Below the pieces are notes generated by a model. It was not told where the DNA came from. It ran no database searches and saw nothing but the letters and a program-made list of their open reading frames with translations. Below, piece after piece: positions 5,638 to 55,290 of a stretch of DNA of 64,000 nt. Made by a program: the position numbers and the translations under genes. This DNA is from Clostridia bacterium. Its GTDB lineage: Bacteria > Bacillota > Clostridia > Oscillospirales > CAG-272. The stretch's first letter is position 1. Every line of letters starts with the position of its first letter. The stretch spans positions 3,751-67,750 of the forward strand of contig JAFTOB010000160.1 of assembly GCA_017451545.1 (NCBI GenBank). The letters are read 5' to 3'.

Positions 5638-5698
5638 TACCAAAAATTGTTTATTAAAAGTTTTTGCTTTTCTCTATAGAATTTTTGAGTACTATAAA

Positions 5699-5732
5699 GG
5701 AAACAAGCGCCCCTGCGGGGACGCTTGTTTCC
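5699..5732 (+). terminator. hairpin downstream of the AraC gene
   Basis: ggaaacaagcg-cccctgcgggga-cgcttgtttcc followed by ttatt. Confidence 0.5.
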
Positions 5733-5734
5733 TT

Positions 5735-5882
5735 ATTGCGAAAGCAGATACAGCCTGCGGCTGATAAGATACACGCTTCGCGTGATGATATACGCCTTGC
5801 GGCGATGATATGCCATTGCTTTCGCAATGGATAAAAAATCGACAGGTCGAAACCTGTCGATTTTTGGTGCGGGTAAAAGGAC
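5735..5882. repeat. 148-bp direct repeat, copy 1
   Basis: Matches 6018-6165 with one mismatch that I can see (gataagat versus gatgagat). It contains four mini-hairpins, a terminator-like hairpin at 5838-5861 and 18 nt of tRNA-Leu 3' end at 5865-5882. Confidence 0.9.
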
Positions 5883-5943
5883 ATTTGAACTGCAGCGGCT
5901 CGCGCTGCGGCAAGAATGGTTTGGCTTTGTTTTTTTATTATCA

Positions 5944-6111
5944 ATCACGGCGAAGCCGTGTATATCATCAAGACGGAGTCTTGCATATCATCAATTCCGA
6001 AGGAATTGCATATCATCATTGCGAAAGCAGATACAGCCTGCGGCTGATGAGATACACGCTTCGCGTGATGATATACGCCTTGCGGCGATGATATGCCATT
6101 GCTTTCGCAAT
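5944..6111. repeat. array of 8 mini-hairpins separated by a conserved octamer, in two inverted groups
   Basis: Plus-strand units are cacggcGAAgccgtg, caagacGGAgtcttg, caattccGAAggaattg and cattgcGAAAgcag, each followed by YATATCAT. Next come cagccTGCggctg, cacgcTTCgcgtg, cgccTTGCggcg and ccattgcTTTCgcaatgg, separated by ATGAKATR, which is the reverse complement of that spacer. Confidence 0.75.
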
Positions 6112-6165
6112 GGATAAAAAATCGACAGGTCGAAACCTGTCGATTTTTGGTGCGGGTAAAAGGAC
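6018..6165. repeat. 148-bp direct repeat, copy 2
   Basis: See copy 1. The offset between copies is 283 bp. Confidence 0.9.
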
Positions 6166-48790: not shown

Positions 48791-50254
48791 TTATTCTTTA
48801 TCTTCTGTTCCGCTGAAGAGCACGTCGAAATACGCGTCCAGCAGATCCTTAAATTCATCGGAGATCTGACCGCTGAGGACATCCTCCAGATATTTTCCGT
48901 GGTATGCTCCGAGGGACTCGCCGTAAAGGACGGTCTCCTTCTTCTCGGGATCGTAAATATAGGACTCGTCGCTTCCGTATATGATGTTTCCGGTTCCTAT
49001 ACCGCCGTCAGAGACCACCTCGTCCTCATCGTCCTCGGGCTTGACGTTCTCGTCATTCTTGTCGCCTCCCACATTACCGTCGGAGGGCAGATTTGCGTTG
49101 AGATCGGGCAGCTCATCGGCCTTGATGCCGAAGAGCTCGGTGAGCTTTGCTATGACCTTATCCCTCATTTCAAGGTTGGTCTTCTGGTAGGACAGCGCGT
49201 CCACCAGATCGTCGCAGGCCGTGGCAAATGCGTTGTCGGTCTGCAGTCCGTCATTGCTCGAGTCGCCGTCGCTTCCCACAAGTCTCAGCGAGTCGGCAAA
49301 GTTATACAGCGCGATGTTGAGATATATCTCGTTGTCGGTCATCGCGCCCTCAAGAGCCAGCTCGATTCCCGCGGCGAAGGCTGTGGCAAGATCGGCCACG
49401 TCGCTCACCATAAAATTACTTACGTAAAGCACGTCCATTTTGTCGCGCACCGACAAAGGATCGAGCAGCTCGATGATCTTTCCGAGCTTCTGCATCGAAT
49501 CGTCCTCGCTCTCCAGCATCTTGCGGCTGATGGCAAGGTAAGTATTGGCATTGTCGGAGATCAGGTCAACGTCCACGATGGCGGCTATAACCGTCTCCTT
49601 CATTTCGCTCTCGGTCTCCACCACCTTGGTCAGCGCGTAGAGCAGATCCTCAAGGGTATCGACCGTGCTGTCCTTGGCCTCCTGCTCCATTTCGGATTCC
49701 CTGACCTCACGGATCAGATCCTCAAGAGCGACCCTTTGATATTCCGAAATTGCCCACGGGATCTCGATCTCTTCGTTTGAATCGTCGAGTGCCTCTGCCT
49801 TACCGGGGATGACGAAGGCCGTGACCAGCATTGCGGCCGCAAGCACGAAGGCAACAGTGATCGCCACGATTCCCCGCAGCCCGACGCCTCTCGTGGTAGC
49901 CGCGCTCAGGCGGTTGTCAGCATCCACTCTTTGAAGAGCGATCATAGGGCCGTTATGCTGCTTATAAGCCACCATCGTCTGTGCTCTTTCGCCGAAATTC
50001 AGGGCGCGGTCGATCTTTTTCGCCGCCCGCTTTTCGCTCGGCATAAGCACGAGGACTACGATTCCCGCAACGGCCACGGCGGGCGCAACTGATGCGATCA
50101 GCATTATTATTTTATCAATTGTCAAGATCTCAAATTTTGAAAGAGTCGTAAGCACCGCCGCGATGACGCACCCGACGGCTACGCCGAGCAGCGATCCTCT
50201 GATCCACGCTCCGACGCACATTTTTCGTTTGAATTTTTTAAATCCTTCTCCCAT
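48791..50254 (-). CDS. uncharacterised membrane protein with long acidic domain (first gene of the operon)
   Basis: Three hydrophobic segments in the first 150 aa, followed by a Glu/Asp-rich domain of about 330 aa. Confidence 0.6.
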   Translation of the reverse strand: MGEGFKKFKRKMCVGAWIRGSLLGVAVGCVIAAVLTTLSKFEILTIDKIIMLIASVAPAVAVAGIVVLVLMPSEKRAAKKIDRALNFGERAQTMVAYKQHNGPMIALQRVDADNRLSAATTRGVGLRGIVAITVAFVLAAAMLVTAFVIPGKAEALDDSNEEIEIPWAISEYQRVALEDLIREVRESEMEQEAKDSTVDTLEDLLYALTKVVETESEMKETVIAAIVDVDLISDNANTYLAISRKMLESEDDSMQKLGKIIELLDPLSVRDKMDVLYVSNFMVSDVADLATAFAAGIELALEGAMTDNEIYLNIALYNFADSLRLVGSDGDSSNDGLQTDNAFATACDDLVDALSYQKTNLEMRDKVIAKLTELFGIKADELPDLNANLPSDGNVGGDKNDENVKPEDDEDEVVSDGGIGTGNIIYGSDESYIYDPEKKETVLYGESLGAYHGKYLEDVLSGQISDEFKDLLDAYFDVLFSGTEDKE

Positions 50255-50360
50255 ATTCAGTTCCTTTCTTTGGGATTTGGGTAACAGCTTAAATCAAGTT
50301 TTCCGTGCCTTTCTTCACCCTTTGACAAAACGGCACAATACGGACATTATAATTAGAATT

Positions 50361-50389
50361 ATTATATCAAAAAATCGCCTTTTTGTCAA
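50361..50389 (-). promoter_or_regulatory. consensus promoter of the MoxR/VWA/giant-lipoprotein operon
   Basis: Minus strand reads TTGACA-17 nt-TATAAT, about 105 nt upstream of the ATG at 50254. Confidence 0.7.
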
Positions 50390-50439
50390 CAGTTTATATA
50401 TATAAAGTAGGCTTTATGGAAAAAGTTAACATATAGAAA

Positions 50440-50464
50440 AGCCTCCCGATCAGTTCGGGAGGCT
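50440..50464 (-). terminator. terminator overlapping the last pnuC codons
   Basis: agcctcccga-actga-tcgggaggct followed by uuuuc on the minus strand. Confidence 0.65.
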
Positions 50465-51148
50465 GTTTTGGTCGTGCTTCATCCTTTGCCAGCTTACAAA
50501 GCCGTAAATATCGTTGAAGAAAAACATTATAAAGCAGGCAACCATTGGAACGTAGGATATATCTGCCAGCGATGCCATGACCCAAAGGATGATAAGCACC
50601 ACGTCGTTTGCCGCGTAGCCGATGGCGTAATAGGGGCTTCTGAAGACCATCAGCATTGATGCAAGCCAGCTCGTAGCCACAGAAAGTGTGCTTACCTCAA
50701 GATTTGTGGTGCCCAGCGCGCCGAGAATAAAGTAAAATGCCACGGTGACGGCGATGCAGGTTGAAAATATTATGGCCGCCGAGCCGAGCTTGAGCTTTTT
50801 TGCCACCTCGACTTGGGAGCTCTGCTTGTACGGGTGGCGGATCCAGGAGATCAGCGCCATAACCGCCGTCGGCGTGGTCATACAAAGATATGTTATCATT
50901 TCGCCGTAATATCCGAAAAAGAAGGATACGGTGCCGTAAAAGACCGAGAAGATTATGACCAATATCTGCCCGATGACCATTCCCTTCGCGAGAAAGATCA
51001 AGGCTGTCACGCCGAAAAGAGACGAGACGAGGGTCAGATAATCATTACTGTGAAATATGAAAAATGAAGCCGCCACAACCACGACCGAGACCAGCCACAG
51101 CGCGACCTCGAATTTTGTCAGCTCCTTGAATTGCTTGAAAAATTTCAT
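50450..51148 (-). CDS. pnuC: PnuC-family nicotinamide riboside-type transporter
   Basis: 232 aa with about 7 TM segments and a two-half repeat architecture ending in GMVIGQILVIIFSVFYG...LISW and FFFNDIYGFVSWQR, typical of PnuC. Confidence 0.7.
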   Translation of the reverse strand: MKFFKQFKELTKFEVALWLVSVVVVAASFFIFHSNDYLTLVSSLFGVTALIFLAKGMVIGQILVIIFSVFYGTVSFFFGYYGEMITYLCMTTPTAVMALISWIRHPYKQSSQVEVAKKLKLGSAAIIFSTCIAVTVAFYFILGALGTTNLEVSTLSVATSWLASMLMVFRSPYYAIGYAANDVVLIILWVMASLADISYVPMVACFIMFFFNDIYGFVSWQRMKHDQNSLPN

Positions 51149-51335
51149 ACGTTCTCCTTTTGAAGATATAACTGTCGACCTTCAGCCGACGAGGGGTTTT
51201 TCGCCTTTTGTGATCGGATAAGCTCTCTCACCCACAAGACTTGCGAACGGAAAAAGCCCGTCCGCCACGCGGCATCGGTGTTCAGCCGACGAGGGCTTTT
51301 TCGCCTTTTGTGATCGGATGAGCTTCACCGTAAAA
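51149..51335 (-). promoter_or_regulatory. pnuC 5' leader built from two 44-nt modules (51181-51224 and 51281-51324)
   Basis: The modules differ at 2 of 44 positions and start exactly 100 nt apart. Module 1 is enclosed by cggtg/caccg (51276-51330). Confidence 0.6.
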
Positions 51336-51341
51336 CCTTAT

Positions 51342-51352
51342 ATTATATCACA
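51342..51352 (-). promoter_or_regulatory. extended -10 promoter element for pnuC
   Basis: Minus strand reads TGTGATATAAT. Confidence 0.55.
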
Positions 51353-51465
51353 AATGCACCCAAACCCGCATCTTCTAAGACCTAACGACGCGATTTGAGT
51401 GCATTGCACACTACCCGGTGGCAGTTTTGTTATTTTCTTAATTTTATCACAGATTCCCCGAAAAG

Positions 51466-51870
51466 TCAACCCTTGACATCAAATTTTCTCTGACACCTGG
51501 GGCAACAGGCCACGTGCGTGCCTCCTCGCTTGGGAAGGCGCAGAACGGCGTGGCAGGCGGGACATTTTCTGTAAACGTGGGTCTTTCTGTCCTTGAATTT
51601 ATTCTTTTGCAACTTGAAAAAGCCCTTGATCCTTCTGAAAATGCCGAAAACGAAATCGTTTTCCTTTCTTCTCGCCAAGCGGTTGTGCGAAAAAGCGCGG
51701 AACAGCATATATCCGACGGTCAGAATCTCCAGAATTATAAAAACGAACGAATTCACAAAAAGATTTATAATTATGAAAAGCATAGCGACGCCGAAAAGGA
51801 CGAAATAGAGCTTATCTATTCCGTACGATCCCGAAAAAGTTCTGTACAGCCATTGCTTGAATTTACCCAT
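51466..51870 (-). CDS. small membrane protein with C-terminal zinc ribbon
   Basis: The start MGKFKQWLYR follows AAAGGA. 2 TM segments. The C-terminus is CPACHAVLRLPKRGGTHVACCPRCQ. Confidence 0.6.
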   Translation of the reverse strand: MGKFKQWLYRTFSGSYGIDKLYFVLFGVAMLFIIINLFVNSFVFIILEILTVGYMLFRAFSHNRLARRKENDFVFGIFRRIKGFFKLQKNKFKDRKTHVYRKCPACHAVLRLPKRGGTHVACCPRCQRKFDVKG

Positions 51871-51994
51871 TTTAATTGATCCTTTCAAATTCTTCTGCAA
51901 TTATACTATATTTTGCCCGCTTTTGCAACAGCTTTGACCGCTTGTTTACAAAGAAGTGTAAAAAAGTTTGTTTTTGACACAAAAAACATAAAAT

Positions 51995-52212
51995 CAGGAC
52001 TGCCTAATTTGGATGTAGAAGGCGTGATCGGGTTCTCGTCGCTGTACTCGGTACTGCAGAGAGCCCGAGCGCGTCTAAAAAACGCACATAAAAAATGAAA
52101 TCCGCAAGGATTTCTACCTAAAGAACCGCTTATTCCATCGGTTTTGATAGAAAAAGCGGTTCTTTTTATTTGATTTGTGCGTTTTTGGTCTGCGCCAAAG
52201 TAGGCAGTCCTG
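51995..52212 (+). ncRNA. candidate structured RNA or MITE-like element (218 nt)
   Basis: Closing helix: 51995-52010 with 52197-52212. P1b: 52021-52029 with 52187-52196. Hairpin 52030-52066. P2: 52078-52088 with 52176-52186, enclosing hairpins 52097-52114 (GCAA loop) and 52120-52165. Three G.U pairs exist only on the plus strand. Confidence 0.4.
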
Positions 52213-52228
52213 CGAGTCAAATATTCTC

Positions 52229-52636
52229 TCAGATATACTTCTTAACGATATCCGATGCCTCTTCGCTGGGAATGGAAGAGGTGATGATCATATTGACGTT
52301 GTGGTGCTGGAGAAGCTCGTCGAGCTCAAGCAGCATCTTCTCGAAGGAAGGAACGTCGTTGTTGCAGATCTTGAGTGCCGAGTCGATGAAGAGATCGGTC
52401 ACGTCGTGATTGCTGGCCAGAATTCCCGAAACAAAGCCGTAGAGAGACTGTGCGTCGAAAATAAAGTAATCGTTTGTATTTATCAAGCGAGCCTGATACT
52501 TAATATCGAATCTGAGCTTTACACCGCGCTCAATGCAAACAACGTCGCCATGAGACTCAGCGGTTGCCTTATTGACCATTTCGATCAGAGTTTTTGTTTT
52601 GCCGGTACCTTTAACACCGATAATCAGTTTTAACAT
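52229..52636 (-). CDS. small P-loop NTPase-like protein
   Basis: MLKLIIGVKGTGKTKTLIEM is a Walker A motif. 135 aa. Confidence 0.55.
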   Translation of the reverse strand: MLKLIIGVKGTGKTKTLIEMVNKATAESHGDVVCIERGVKLRFDIKYQARLINTNDYFIFDAQSLYGFVSGILASNHDVTDLFIDSALKICNNDVPSFEKMLLELDELLQHHNVNMIITSSIPSEEASDIVKKYI

Positions 52637-52719
52637 CTTTTTCCTCCTGTAACTGAAGTAATACTATTATACACTATGTTTTCAAAAAATGCAATACTAT
52701 TTTTGTGCAAATTTTAAAA

Positions 52720-54057
52720 TTATTTCAGTCTTTTCTCAAGTTCTGCGCGTCTGTCCTCAAATCCGGGCTTTCCGAGGAGGGCAAACATATTCTTCTTGTA
52801 GGCCTCAACGCCGGGCTGGTCGAAGGGGTTAACGCCCAGCATATAACCGGAAATGGCGCAGGAGAGCCAGAAGAAGTAGATCATGTAACCGACGGAATAT
52901 GCGGAGCGATCCTTGATATCAAGGACGATATTGGGGACGCCGCCGTCGTTATGAGCGAGGACGGTTGCGGTTCTCGCGGTGCTGTTGACGTCATAAAGAG
53001 TCTTGCCCGAGAGGAAGTTCAGACCGTCGATGTTGTTCTCATCGTTGGGTATAACTATCTCGCTGTCGGGCTGACCGATGGACATAACAGTCTCAAACAG
53101 GAAGCGCTGACCCTCCTGAATGTACTGTCCGAGGGAGTGGAGATCGGTGGAGAAAATGACCGAGGAGGGGTAAATTCCGCGGTTGTCCTTACCCTCGCTC
53201 TCGCCGAAGAGCTGCTTCCACCACTCGCTGAACATCTGCAGGTAGGGCTCGTAGCCGACGAGGATCTCAACGTTCTTGCCCTTACGGAGAAGAATGTTTC
53301 TGATTGCGGCGTACTTGTAGCTGTCGTTCTTGCTGATATCGGCAGAGGTAAGCTCGGTGCGAGCGGCCTCGGCACCTGCCATCAGCTCGTCGATATCGAT
53401 GCCTGCAACGGCGATGGGAAGAAGACCGACGGCACTGAGGACGGAATATCTGCCGCCCATGTCATCCGGAACGACGAAGGTCTCGTAGCCCGACTTATCC
53501 GAGAAGCTGCGGAGAGTTCCCTTCTCCTTATCGGTGGTAACGAAGATATGCTTTGCCGCGCCATCCTTGCCGTACTTGCTCTCCAGCATATCGCGGAAGA
53601 TACGGAAGGCAACTGCGGTCTCGGTGGTGGTTCCCGACTTGGAAATAACGTTGATGCAAACGTCCTTACCCTCGCAGATCTCAAGGAGCTCCTTCATATC
53701 CGAAGAGCTGAGGTTGCAGCCCGAGAAGTAAATGTCGGGGGTGTCCTTCTTGAGGTTGTTGTAGCGAGGAGACTTGAGAAATTCGATAACTGCGCGTGCG
53801 CCGAGGTAAGAGCCGCCGATACCGGTGACGATGAACACGTCACAGCTCTTCTGAATCTTCTTTGCCGCTTCCTTTATTCTTGCGAACTCCTCTTTGTCAT
53901 AGTTGCAGGATGCGGTTCTCCAACCGAGAAAATCGTTTCCTGCGCCGGTCTTATTGACCAGCATTTCGTGTGCCGCGTTAACGAGCGGCTGAATGTTTGC
54001 ATACTCGTTGCTTCCGATAAAATCGGAGAGATGCTTGTCGTTGAGTTTGACTGCCAT
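52720..54057 (-). CDS. pgi: glucose-6-phosphate isomerase
   Basis: [21 protein letters not shown] and [14 protein letters not shown] motifs. Confidence 0.93.
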
Positions 54058-54123
54058 AGTCTTTAAAATCCCCTTTCAGGATCCGAAACGTATTTTTCGG
54101 ATCAATCCTTACTTTTTATACAT

Positions 54124-55290
54124 CTATCTCATAAACAATACGCCGAAGACGCGGCCGAGCACGTCGAAAAATCCGATCTTTCCGACGCTTTCAGCGGCCT
54201 TTATCTGCGTTTCGCCTATTGTTTTGCCGTTCAGGCTGTAGCTGATACGGCCAACGGTATCGCCCTGCTTTACGGGCGCGGTCAGGCTGTCTTGAAGCTC
54301 GACCGATATTTTGACCCCGGACGCGCCGCCCTTTTCGATGACGGAGCAAAAATCCTCGGCCGTTATTTTACATACGTTGCTCTTGCCGCCCGCAACGCCG
54401 AGGGTCTCGGGCAAGGACGGTGAGTTTTTGTAAAGCGCGTAGCCCGCAAAGCCCCAATCAAGGAGAGCCTTTGCGGCGTTATTGCGCTCATCTCTGGTGG
54501 GTGAGTTCATAATAACGGCGATGAGCGAAAGTCCGTCCCGCTCGGCGGTTGCGCTGATGCAAAAGCCCGCCTTTGCCGTGGAGCCGGTCTTGAGACCCGT
54601 CGCGCCCTTATAAAATCTTACGAGGCGGTTTGTGTTCGTCAGTCCGAACTCGCCGTTTCTCACGGTATCCATCCATTTTGAGCTGTATTCCAGCACCTTT
54701 TCGTGCTTTATCAGCTCCCTCGACATTATGGCGATATCCCTCGCCGAGGTCACGTGGTTCTCAGCGGTATCGTCGAGGCCGTTTGTGTTCTCGAAATTTG
54801 TGTTTTTCATTCCGAGCTGTCGCGCCCTCTCGTTCATCCGCGCCACGAAGACCTCCTCGCTGCCCGCTATATGCTCTGCAAGTGCCACGGCGCAATCGTT
54901 TGCGCTGGCGATGATCACGCTCTTGAGCATATCCTCAAGGGGCATCTGCTCGCCTTCCTTTAAAAAGATCTGCGAGCCGCCCATTGACGAGGCGTGGGTG
55001 CTTGCGGTAACGGTATCGTCGAGCTTCACGTTCCCTGCCTCCACCGCTTCCATAACCAGCAAAAGGGTCATGATCTTGGTGACCGAGGCGGGTGGGAGGG
55101 GCGCATCGGCGTTCTTTTCGTAAAGAACGGTGCCGGTGTTGGCCTCCATAAGTATTGCCGAGGTGCAATTAAGGTCAAGCGCGGGGGCATCCGTTTCCAC
55201 CGACACCGCCCCTGCCGTAAAGGCGGGCGACAGCGCAAGGATCAGACAGAAAAACAATGCCCCTGCCCTTTTCAGTATTCTTTTTTTCAT
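54124..55290 (-). CDS. D-alanyl-D-alanine carboxypeptidase (PBP5/S11 type)
   Basis: Signal peptide, SVTKIMT (SxxK), SANDCA-like ASANDCA (SxN) and KTGST (KTG). Confidence 0.88.
   Translation of the reverse strand: MKKRILKRAGALFFCLILALSPAFTAGAVSVETDAPALDLNCTSAILMEANTGTVLYEKNADAPLPPASVTKIMTLLLVMEAVEAGNVKLDDTVTASTHASSMGGSQIFLKEGEQMPLEDMLKSVIIASANDCAVALAEHIAGSEEVFVARMNERARQLGMKNTNFENTNGLDDTAENHVTSARDIAIMSRELIKHEKVLEYSSKWMDTVRNGEFGLTNTNRLVRFYKGATGLKTGSTAKAGFCISATAERDGLSLIAVIMNSPTRDERNNAAKALLDWGFAGYALYKNSPSLPETLGVAGGKSNVCKITAEDFCSVIEKGGASGVKISVELQDSLTAPVKQGDTVGRISYSLNGKTIGETQIKAAESVGKIGFFDVLGRVFGVLFMR

Follow-up and report, generated by a model that had tools for sequence, protein, structure and literature searches.

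Many families of structured intergenic repeats were found only through systematic screens (PMC2267715). According to previous work, YPAL/RU-2 of Yersinia is a 168 bp sequence whose repeats are internal and not terminal; it lacks A+T enrichment, inserts beside or across regions of dyad symmetry and generates duplications of 3-26 bp, and both filled and empty sites are known (PMC2229807). For REP sequences, roles in termination and mRNA stabilisation have been proposed (PMC3733652). The present analysis concerns a 218-nt structured element in a Clostridia bacterium, located within a 64,000-nt stretch of contig JAFTOB010000160.1 (hereafter the window, meaning the whole 64-kb stretch that was analysed). 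Judged by its sequence and predicted fold, it belongs to an undescribed family of intergenic elements of ~216-218 nt in rumen and gut Clostridia, which are non-coding and strongly folded; among described kinds the element comes closest to the heterogeneous structured intergenic repeats, of which YPAL/RU-2 is one. The overall reading, that it is a mobile or duplicative structured element acting as a compound terminator, is given about even chances here.

Like SLS repeats and atypical miniature inverted-repeat transposable elements (MITEs) such as YPAL, the element is non-coding, falls in the range of 150-220 bp, has a strong predicted fold and lies in an intergenic region downstream of a gene; as with YPAL-like repeats, filled and empty sites can be compared between close relatives. 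Unlike YPAL, it lacks a target-site duplication, and each genome apparently holds few copies. Unlike SLS repeats, it has a three-way junction, a closing stem that varies in sequence, and tandem 216-nt arrays. It has no sequence similarity to any described family.

The element and the segment that distinguishes this lineage from its sister lineages are as follows.

51995-52212, no strand assigned: 218-nt structured element, P1[P1b[H1][P2[H3][H4]]], defined from predicted folds, contig comparison and a homologue at another locus (L050).
51988-52234, minus strand: segment without sister-lineage counterpart, 247 nt in place of a 36-nt stop-codon-plus-terminator stretch, CTGTAATTTTAAAAACCTCCTGCCGATCGGCAGGAGG.

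The element is present on all seven contigs of this lineage, each of which assembles straight through it. The upstream gene encodes a 135-aa protein, of which the exact sequence is found on five contigs (L001-L005) with an identical element in all five, and the element of L039 is identical at 217 of 218 positions, the single substitution (A52173C) falling at an unpaired position. Relatives with the same synteny of glucose-6-phosphate isomerase (PGI), the 135-aa gene, a 134-aa gene and PnuC have an empty site with a simple terminator only. The intergenic region there measures 43 nt in L006 and L007, 140 nt in L017 and L018, and 148 nt, fully read, in L040-L043 and L047-L049; in each case a simple terminator is present and the element is not. 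The same terminator sequence occurs in L044-L046, whose contigs stop within or just past it, L009 and L012 likewise have the simple terminator without the element, and L016 agrees with the empty form over the stretch that is readable. In sister lineages and outgroups, the canonical terminator at the empty site is 31 nt long.

Against the sister lineage (L042/L041), identity is 93-94.5% through the PBP-PGI-135-aa gene region up to 52235, where BLAST homology breaks, to resume at 51987. In the alignment the sister terminator TTTTAAAAACCTCCTGCCGATCGGCAGGAGG (dG -23.3) has given way in the window to GAGAATATTTGACTCG, the element and ATTTTATG, and 3' of the replaced segment the U-tract, the spacer and the promoter are homologous to the sister lineage. 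Comparison of the filled and empty sites revealed no target-site duplication at the flanks, ...ACATAAAAT| and |CGAGTCAAAT. Since the simple terminator is found in the outgroups too, the element is new to this lineage, and the alignments show that it was gained after the split from sisters ~94% identical in the upstream genes, replacing the Rho-independent terminator of the 135-aa gene. The original prediction had proposed syntenic conservation in relatives as a check for a small RNA, and the PGI / 135-aa / 134-aa / PnuC relatives have the simple terminator instead; absence from every syntenic relative argues for insertion or replacement and against a conserved small-RNA locus. Insertion of a core into the loop of the ancestral terminator was considered, an attractive idea in that the 5 bp next to the loop (CTGCC/GGCAG) also occur in the sister terminator; it was rejected because the remainder of the ancestral stem (CCTC/GAGG) is absent.

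Several observations concern the edges of this region. Over 49100-55200, identity to L041/L042 falls from its upstream level to 85-87% across the 134-aa gene and to 77-80% from PnuC onwards, and L039 has the element, but the 3' part of its 134-aa gene is much more divergent. In view of this drop at the element and of the divergent gene part in L039, the element may coincide with a recombination boundary or lie close to one. No relative ends the 135-aa gene in the same way (52229-52240): TAT CTG TAA (..YL*) is replaced by TAT ATC TGA (..YI*), a 2-nt register change that coincides with the left edge of the replaced segment. In the sister lineage, two MEGAHIT contigs (L044 and L045) end in a fold-back of the terminator, ..GGCAGGAGGTTTTTAAAATTACAGATAC, which is an assembly artefact at the palindrome.

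The predicted fold of the element is real and non-random, far beyond chance. On the plus strand the minimum free energy (MFE) is -111.1 kcal/mol, as against -55.5 +/- 4.3 for dinucleotide shuffles (z -13.1), and on the minus strand it is -96.0 kcal/mol (z -10.6). The predicted parts are listed below.

51995-52012, plus numbering: P1 5' arm; arms of 18 nt at 94% complementarity, the outer 11-12 nt varying in the family and the inner TTTGG conserved.
52195-52212: P1 3' arm, pairing with 51995-52012.
52014-52019: P1b 5' strand, UGUAGA, pairing with 52189-52194; two pairs are U.G on the plus strand, and the helix is kept in L050 (UGCAGAA/UUCUGCG).
52189-52194: P1b 3' strand, UCUGCG, from the MFE fold.
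52020-52076: H1, a G+C-rich 57-nt hairpin and the most conserved part of the family; its base pairs 52020-52026 with 52070-52076.
52078-52088: P2 5' strand, AAAAACGCACA, in 11 perfect pairs with 52176-52186.
52176-52186: P2 3' strand, UGUGCGUUUUU, from the predicted fold.
52097-52114: H3, a 7-bp stem with a GCAA loop, enclosed by P2.
52120-52165: H4, with 12 perfect pairs and an imperfect inner stem, enclosed by P2.

Most of the architecture given in the original prediction was recovered, namely the long P1, the perfect P2, the hairpins H3 and H4 at the same positions, and a tight closed three-way junction, where P1b, H1 and P2 meet with 0, 1 and 2 unpaired nt and which recurs in L050. The P1b helix was misplaced in that prediction, which had joined 52021-52029 to 52187-52196; in the MFE fold it is 52014-52019 that pairs with 52189-52194, and 52020-52026 forms the base of H1. 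Of the three wobble pairs that had been named, only U52033.G52063 is present: U52025 has G52071 and not G52092 as its partner, and U52028 is in a Watson-Crick pair with A52068.

Evidence for a family came from an open reading frame (ORF) of 104 codons through the element, which served as the probe in a HMMER search of 1.84 billion representative proteins. A word-indexed protein search with the same ORF returned the same locus only (P0121), and HMMER found three relatives: P0165 (E 4.5e-5), P0166 (E 3.6e-4) and P0167 (E 8e-4). P0167 consists of two tandem units of 72 aa (216 nt), each covering the element from the P1 5' arm to the 3' arm; P0165/P0168 contain at least two element copies, in different frames, and P0166/P0169 correspond to the P2/H4/H3 part. 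Three further copies are known solely as such spurious ORFs, and lengths in the relatives range over 55-191 aa/codons. P0169 (ENA, a 797-nt contig) starts with the peptide GAISSVGQSSRLITGRSKVRILDGPP, whose pattern suggests a translated tRNA gene, followed by an element copy; one family member may thus adjoin a tRNA gene.

The DNA behind P0167 (L050) carries two tandem units at 1001-1434, beginning 3 nt past the stop codon of an ABC-transporter permease gene and followed by a strong promoter, TTGACA-17-TAAAAT (11/12), and a GH31 gene. This locus differs from that of the window, and the orientation of the element to its flanking genes is the same. The two copies are 81.5% identical over 92 nt (E 9e-20), and L050 unit A (1001-1218) has the same length of 218 nt and the same topology. 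Conserved between them are the inner P1, P1b (UGYAGA / UCUGCG), H1 including its bulges and internal loop, P2 and the base of H3, together with a sense-strand tail, CAUUUUU(U/C)AUGUG; the H4 region varies among family members and has no conserved counterpart in L050. The two copies are unrelated in the sequence of the outer 11-12 bp of P1 (CAGGACUGCCUA vs GGGGGCU...), which are paired in both: the arms CAGGACTGCCTA in the window and GGGGGCTTCGC in L050 have nothing in common, and conservation starts at the inner ACTT..GCAGA. As far as the predicted folds go, the outer closing stem is kept as pairing and not as sequence. Paired changes between the copies, compensatory or coordinated, are U-A to C-G in the inner P1, G-C to C-G and UxU to C-G in H1, A-U to G-C in P2 with one bp deleted on both strands, and U-A to C-G in H3.

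Other genomes hold copies at other loci and in tandem, as the L050 units illustrate. With a covariance model built on the H1 region, no additional copy turned up in the window (filters off) or among the 44 fetched loci, and the plasmid and phage collections yielded nothing by distant-mode BLASTN with both copies or by tblastn with P0165. Of two conserved-core patterns run against IMG/VR, one gave no match and the other a single chance match in a G+C-rich phage gene.

Since the ancestral terminator is gone, something else must take over its job, and terminator-like signals lie inside the element itself.

52088-52114, minus strand: intrinsic-terminator-like site H3' (GAAAUCC-UUGC-GGAUUUC) with the tail AUUUUUUAU, from a terminator call; dG -8.5.
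52120-52177, plus strand: H4 with the U-rich tail UUUUUAUUUGAUUUG, terminator-like.
51981-51994, minus strand: U-rich tail directly after P1, AUUUUAUG UUUUUU, the U6 at 51981-51986 and the U-tract of the sister terminator being homologous.

The original prediction had already pointed to AUUUUUU after H3 on the minus strand and to UUUUUAUUUG after H4 on the plus strand, and both are present. A homologous hairpin of 12 bp followed by UUCAUUUUUC was called as a terminator in both L050 units. At both loci, every terminator-like site called from the upstream stop codon to the next promoter belongs to the element, a sense-strand hairpin with a U-tract, as expected of a Rho-independent terminator, stands just 3' of the stop codon (in the window and in the L050 units), and a U-rich tract follows P1 on the sense strand. 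From these signals and their position, we infer that sense-strand termination is the best-supported function of the element. Minus-strand transcription would be ended by nested signals, of which H3' with its U6 would act first, the P2 closing stem with U6 second, and the P1 closing stem with AUUUUAUGUUUUUU, re-using the ancestral U-tract, third. The P1b/H1/P2 junction lies downstream of the first sense terminator, and we infer that it serves the propagation or duplication of the element itself and not an RNA function of the host; the conserved core would probably act as a single-stranded nucleic acid of antisense-strand sequence.

In comparison with known terminators, the element resembles the Rho-independent type in that it occupies the exact ancestral terminator site and has a sense hairpin with a U-tract, in the window also an antisense one, and it resembles bidirectional terminators in that P2 is an A-tract/U-tract stem. 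Unlike terminators, it is seven times longer than the one it replaced, has a conserved 57-nt hairpin and a junction without terminator role, and is homologous to a copy at an unrelated locus.

Five points weigh against the compound-terminator reading. H3' is weak in the window, at -8.5 kcal/mol compared with -23.3 for the ancestral terminator. No mobility mechanism was seen, as there is no transposase, no target-site duplication and no conserved terminal repeat. Within the 64-kb window there is one copy only, by BLAST and by covariance model with filters off. Covariation is not significant (93% of cells paired, one pair changed on both sides, 168/500 shuffles as high), because only two independent DNA copies are available. 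Finally, the antisense strand has the better fold and a 15:4 bias in its favour, described below, which a pure sense-terminator role does not explain.

A bolder version, which we regard as unlikely, would be a strand-specific mobile "terminator cassette", whose ~195-nt antisense core of single-stranded DNA or RNA would fold into the three-way junction and would enter or replace terminator hairpins without terminal inverted repeats (TIRs) or duplication, its closing stem and U-tract keeping the host gene terminated and tandem amplification producing arrays; alternatively, the same junction might represent a new class of structured non-coding RNA.

The rival that survives best is a sense-strand 3' untranslated region (3'-UTR) element, in which transcription would read through past H3' and the mRNA end would be closed by P1 and its U-tract, either stabilising the message against 3' exonucleases in the manner of REP/BIME sequences or yielding a small RNA from the 3'-UTR. 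The start of the element 16 nt after the stop codon in the window and 3 nt in L050, its identical orientation in both loci and the sense-strand U-rich tract after P1 in both would agree with it, and read-through is plausible in the window because H3' is weak there. However, the H3' terminator of L050 is strong (12 bp, seven of them G-C pairs), so that little read-through is expected at that locus; the sense strand folds worse, with H1' barely above its shuffles (z -2.2), and one-sided changes, which on the antisense strand exchange G-C and G.U, disrupt pairing on the sense strand. The 3'-UTR element is accordingly rather improbable in our judgement.

The central claim of the original prediction was that the plus strand, antisense to both flanking genes, is transcribed into a closed three-way junction, as a regulatory or protein-binding RNA. 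In its favour, the two independent copies both have the more stable fold on the plus-like strand (-111.1 vs -96.0 in the window, -107.1 vs -93.2 in L050A), H1 is strongly plus-specific (-33.8, z -5.2, vs -22.5, z -2.2, on the minus strand), and pairs that are possible as wobbles on one strand only favour the antisense strand by 6:2 in the window and 9:3 in L050A, or 13:4 as distinct pairs. Both substitutions between the tandem units of L050 create U.G on that strand, which brings the tally of wobbles and substitutions to 15:4 (nominal two-sided p ~0.02). The plus strand of the element also has an excess of G, opposite to the local skew; local mutational skew predicts the opposite bias, so it does not explain the asymmetry away. 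In the window there are 5-6 plus-only wobble pairs and two minus-only ones (C52040.A52058 and C52136.A52149), and H4 has its more stable fold on the minus strand (-26.2, against -21.1 on the plus strand). Composition accounts for part of the energy gap between the strands, with shuffle means 7-8 kcal/mol apart, and after composition correction the strand difference of L050 almost disappears (z -7.7 vs -7.3). The loop of H3 is a GNRA tetraloop (GCAA) on the plus strand in the window, as had been pointed out, but it is not conserved and reads AUGC in L050.

What such a gene would need for its expression is largely missing. Consensus scans found no plus-like promoter in L050 and, in the window, only a 9/12 match at 51884-51912, 83 nt upstream; neither locus has a terminator or U-tract after the P1 3' arm, and in the window the RNA would end at H4 with its U-tract, too early for P2 and P1 to close. 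Together with the absence of the element from all syntenic relatives, this tells against a plus-strand RNA gene, which is distinctly unlikely and less likely than a terminator element.

Rfam offered no known RNA for the element either. At gathering thresholds a scan of the whole window returned three tRNAs only, and at permissive E-values the element region gave sub-threshold matches only. The expectation that the element is not 6S, SRP, tmRNA or RNase P RNA was borne out, as the suggested Rfam comparison returned no family match. Among the sub-threshold matches, rliE (RF01459) gave a full-length plus-strand alignment in which the helices are arranged alike (within a closing helix, one hairpin and an inner helix that encloses two more); it was rejected, scoring 26.9 bits vs a gathering threshold of 90 (E 0.02-0.04), and L050 has no rliE match. 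L050 gave equally weak matches to other A+T-rich Listeria models, on the other strand. The likeness to rliE is taken to be chance or architectural, because L050 does not reproduce it.

As a third possibility, raised in the original prediction, the element might be a classical MITE, a non-autonomous cut-and-paste element with TIRs of ~18 bp bound by a transposase encoded elsewhere. Its size, its non-coding nature and its terminal inverted repeats fit, as do the filled and empty sites and the relatives at other loci, and the end sequence CAGGACTGCC..AA.TT may loosely resemble IS5/ISAs1/IS1595-type ends. On the other hand, there is no target-site duplication, and the target was replaced (247 nt for 36 nt) and not simply interrupted; assembly also runs straight through the element in all seven contigs. 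L050 has outer P1 arms of wholly different sequence, and these arms can therefore not be a conserved binding site for a transposase. Neither a TIR pair nor a single arm was found beyond chance in GTDB representative genomes, JGI metagenome contigs and IMG/VR, collections that do not include the host genome: the TIR-pair pattern had no match in the GTDB genomes (the element's own locus was likewise not returned), and the single-arm 18-mer had 6 matches in genomes, 14 in JGI metagenome contigs and none in IMG/VR, all of them isolated chance occurrences without similarity beyond the match itself, and these scans gave no related autonomous insertion sequence with matching ends. Of the MITE proposal, dispersal and recent gain stand, and the target-site duplication and conserved TIRs do not; as a whole it is quite doubtful.

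It is most improbable that the element is a stack of terminator hairpins that arose by chance or grew locally, belonging to no family and serving termination alone: every nested level does end in a minus-strand U-tract and the tails after H3' and after P1 are alike (ATTTTTTATGTGCGTTTTTT vs ATTTTATGTTTTTTGTG), but the homologue at an unrelated locus in L050, in which the non-terminator parts H1 and P1b are conserved, largely refutes it, and significant spurious-ORF matches also speak against it. From the related suggestion of back-to-back terminators, a likely use by the host can be retained; the conserved non-terminator core is not captured by it.

Three further systems share features with the element. 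Like REP/BIME/REPIN sequences it is extragenic, palindromic, located at gene 3' ends and able to occur in tandem clusters. REPs are units of 20-40 bp with GTAG/CGTC-type tags, occur in high copy number and are linked to a RAYT gene, and their proposed mobility involves strand-specific folded single-stranded DNA. The unit of the present element is 216-218 nt, its ends carry no GTAG/CGTC tag, and no RAYT or other transposase was found among the Pfam-annotated neighbour genes. Like attC sites, it directly follows a gene, is conserved in structure and variable in sequence, and has a folded bottom (antisense) strand, which in attC is the functional one; attC-like words also occur in the arms of the window element (GCCTAAT / AGTAGGC vs RYYYAAC / GTTRRRY, 5-6 of 7 positions), 7 nt inside the ends. 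These boxes are absent from L050, no integrase was seen among the neighbours, and no cassette array is present. Unlike in attC systems, only the element and no gene cassette was gained, and the element is longer than typical attC sites, which measure 57-141 bp. The sense-strand topology also resembles the msr-msd region of retrons, with a1/a2 plus hairpins; a retron was rejected, since no reverse transcriptase lies beside either copy (the neighbours are the P-loop and Zn-ribbon genes in the window, and the ABC permease and GH31 genes in L050) and the internal terminator would truncate the RNA.

The genes around the element in the window confirm that it is intergenic between two minus-strand genes, as originally described.

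52229-52636, minus strand: upstream gene for a 135-aa P-loop protein without Pfam family, with 16 nt separating its stop codon and the element.
51466-51870, minus strand: downstream gene for a 134-aa Zn-ribbon membrane protein.
51900-51928, minus strand: promoter of the 134-aa gene, TTGCAA-17-TATAAT, positioned downstream of the element and also kept in relatives without it.

Because the promoter of the downstream gene is located 3' of the element in both the window and L050, a riboswitch or leader of that gene was rejected. A type I toxin-antitoxin system was rejected as well, as the small ORFs have only 8 and 19 codons and are not conserved. More than 5000 metagenome-derived proteins are related to the 135-aa P-loop protein (E <= 0.001), and its gene directly follows that of glucose-6-phosphate isomerase in every fetched relative.

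The 104-codon ORF (TTG start) occupies 51906-52220 of the minus strand and spans the whole palindromic element together with the -35 box, that is, a palindromic stretch that includes a promoter. An open stretch of this length was reached in 11 of 2000 shuffles, and the ORF is sometimes annotated as a gene (P0121). A protein-coding reading was rejected, because its only significant relatives are spurious ORFs across other element copies and the frame differs between copies while the nucleotides are conserved.

A second structure-rich intergenic region was observed at 5690-6165 of the window, between convergent genes. It contains a directly duplicated unit of ~283 nt, a string of short hairpins with GATGATATAC-like spacers that ends in a 32-nt palindrome, AAAAATCGACAGGTCGAAACCTGTCGATTTTT (5834-5865 and 6117-6148).

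For genome annotation, elements of this kind call for caution, as they yield spurious ORFs. If the reading of a structured element that took over termination holds, the locus would be a clean natural case of such an element replacing a terminator between lineages ~6% apart, with both filled and empty sites known. It would also point to an undescribed element family of uncultured rumen Clostridia with a conserved three-way junction, a variable closing stem and a repeatable strand asymmetry, and would provide a test case for terminator turnover and for the movement of non-autonomous elements without TIRs or target-site duplications.

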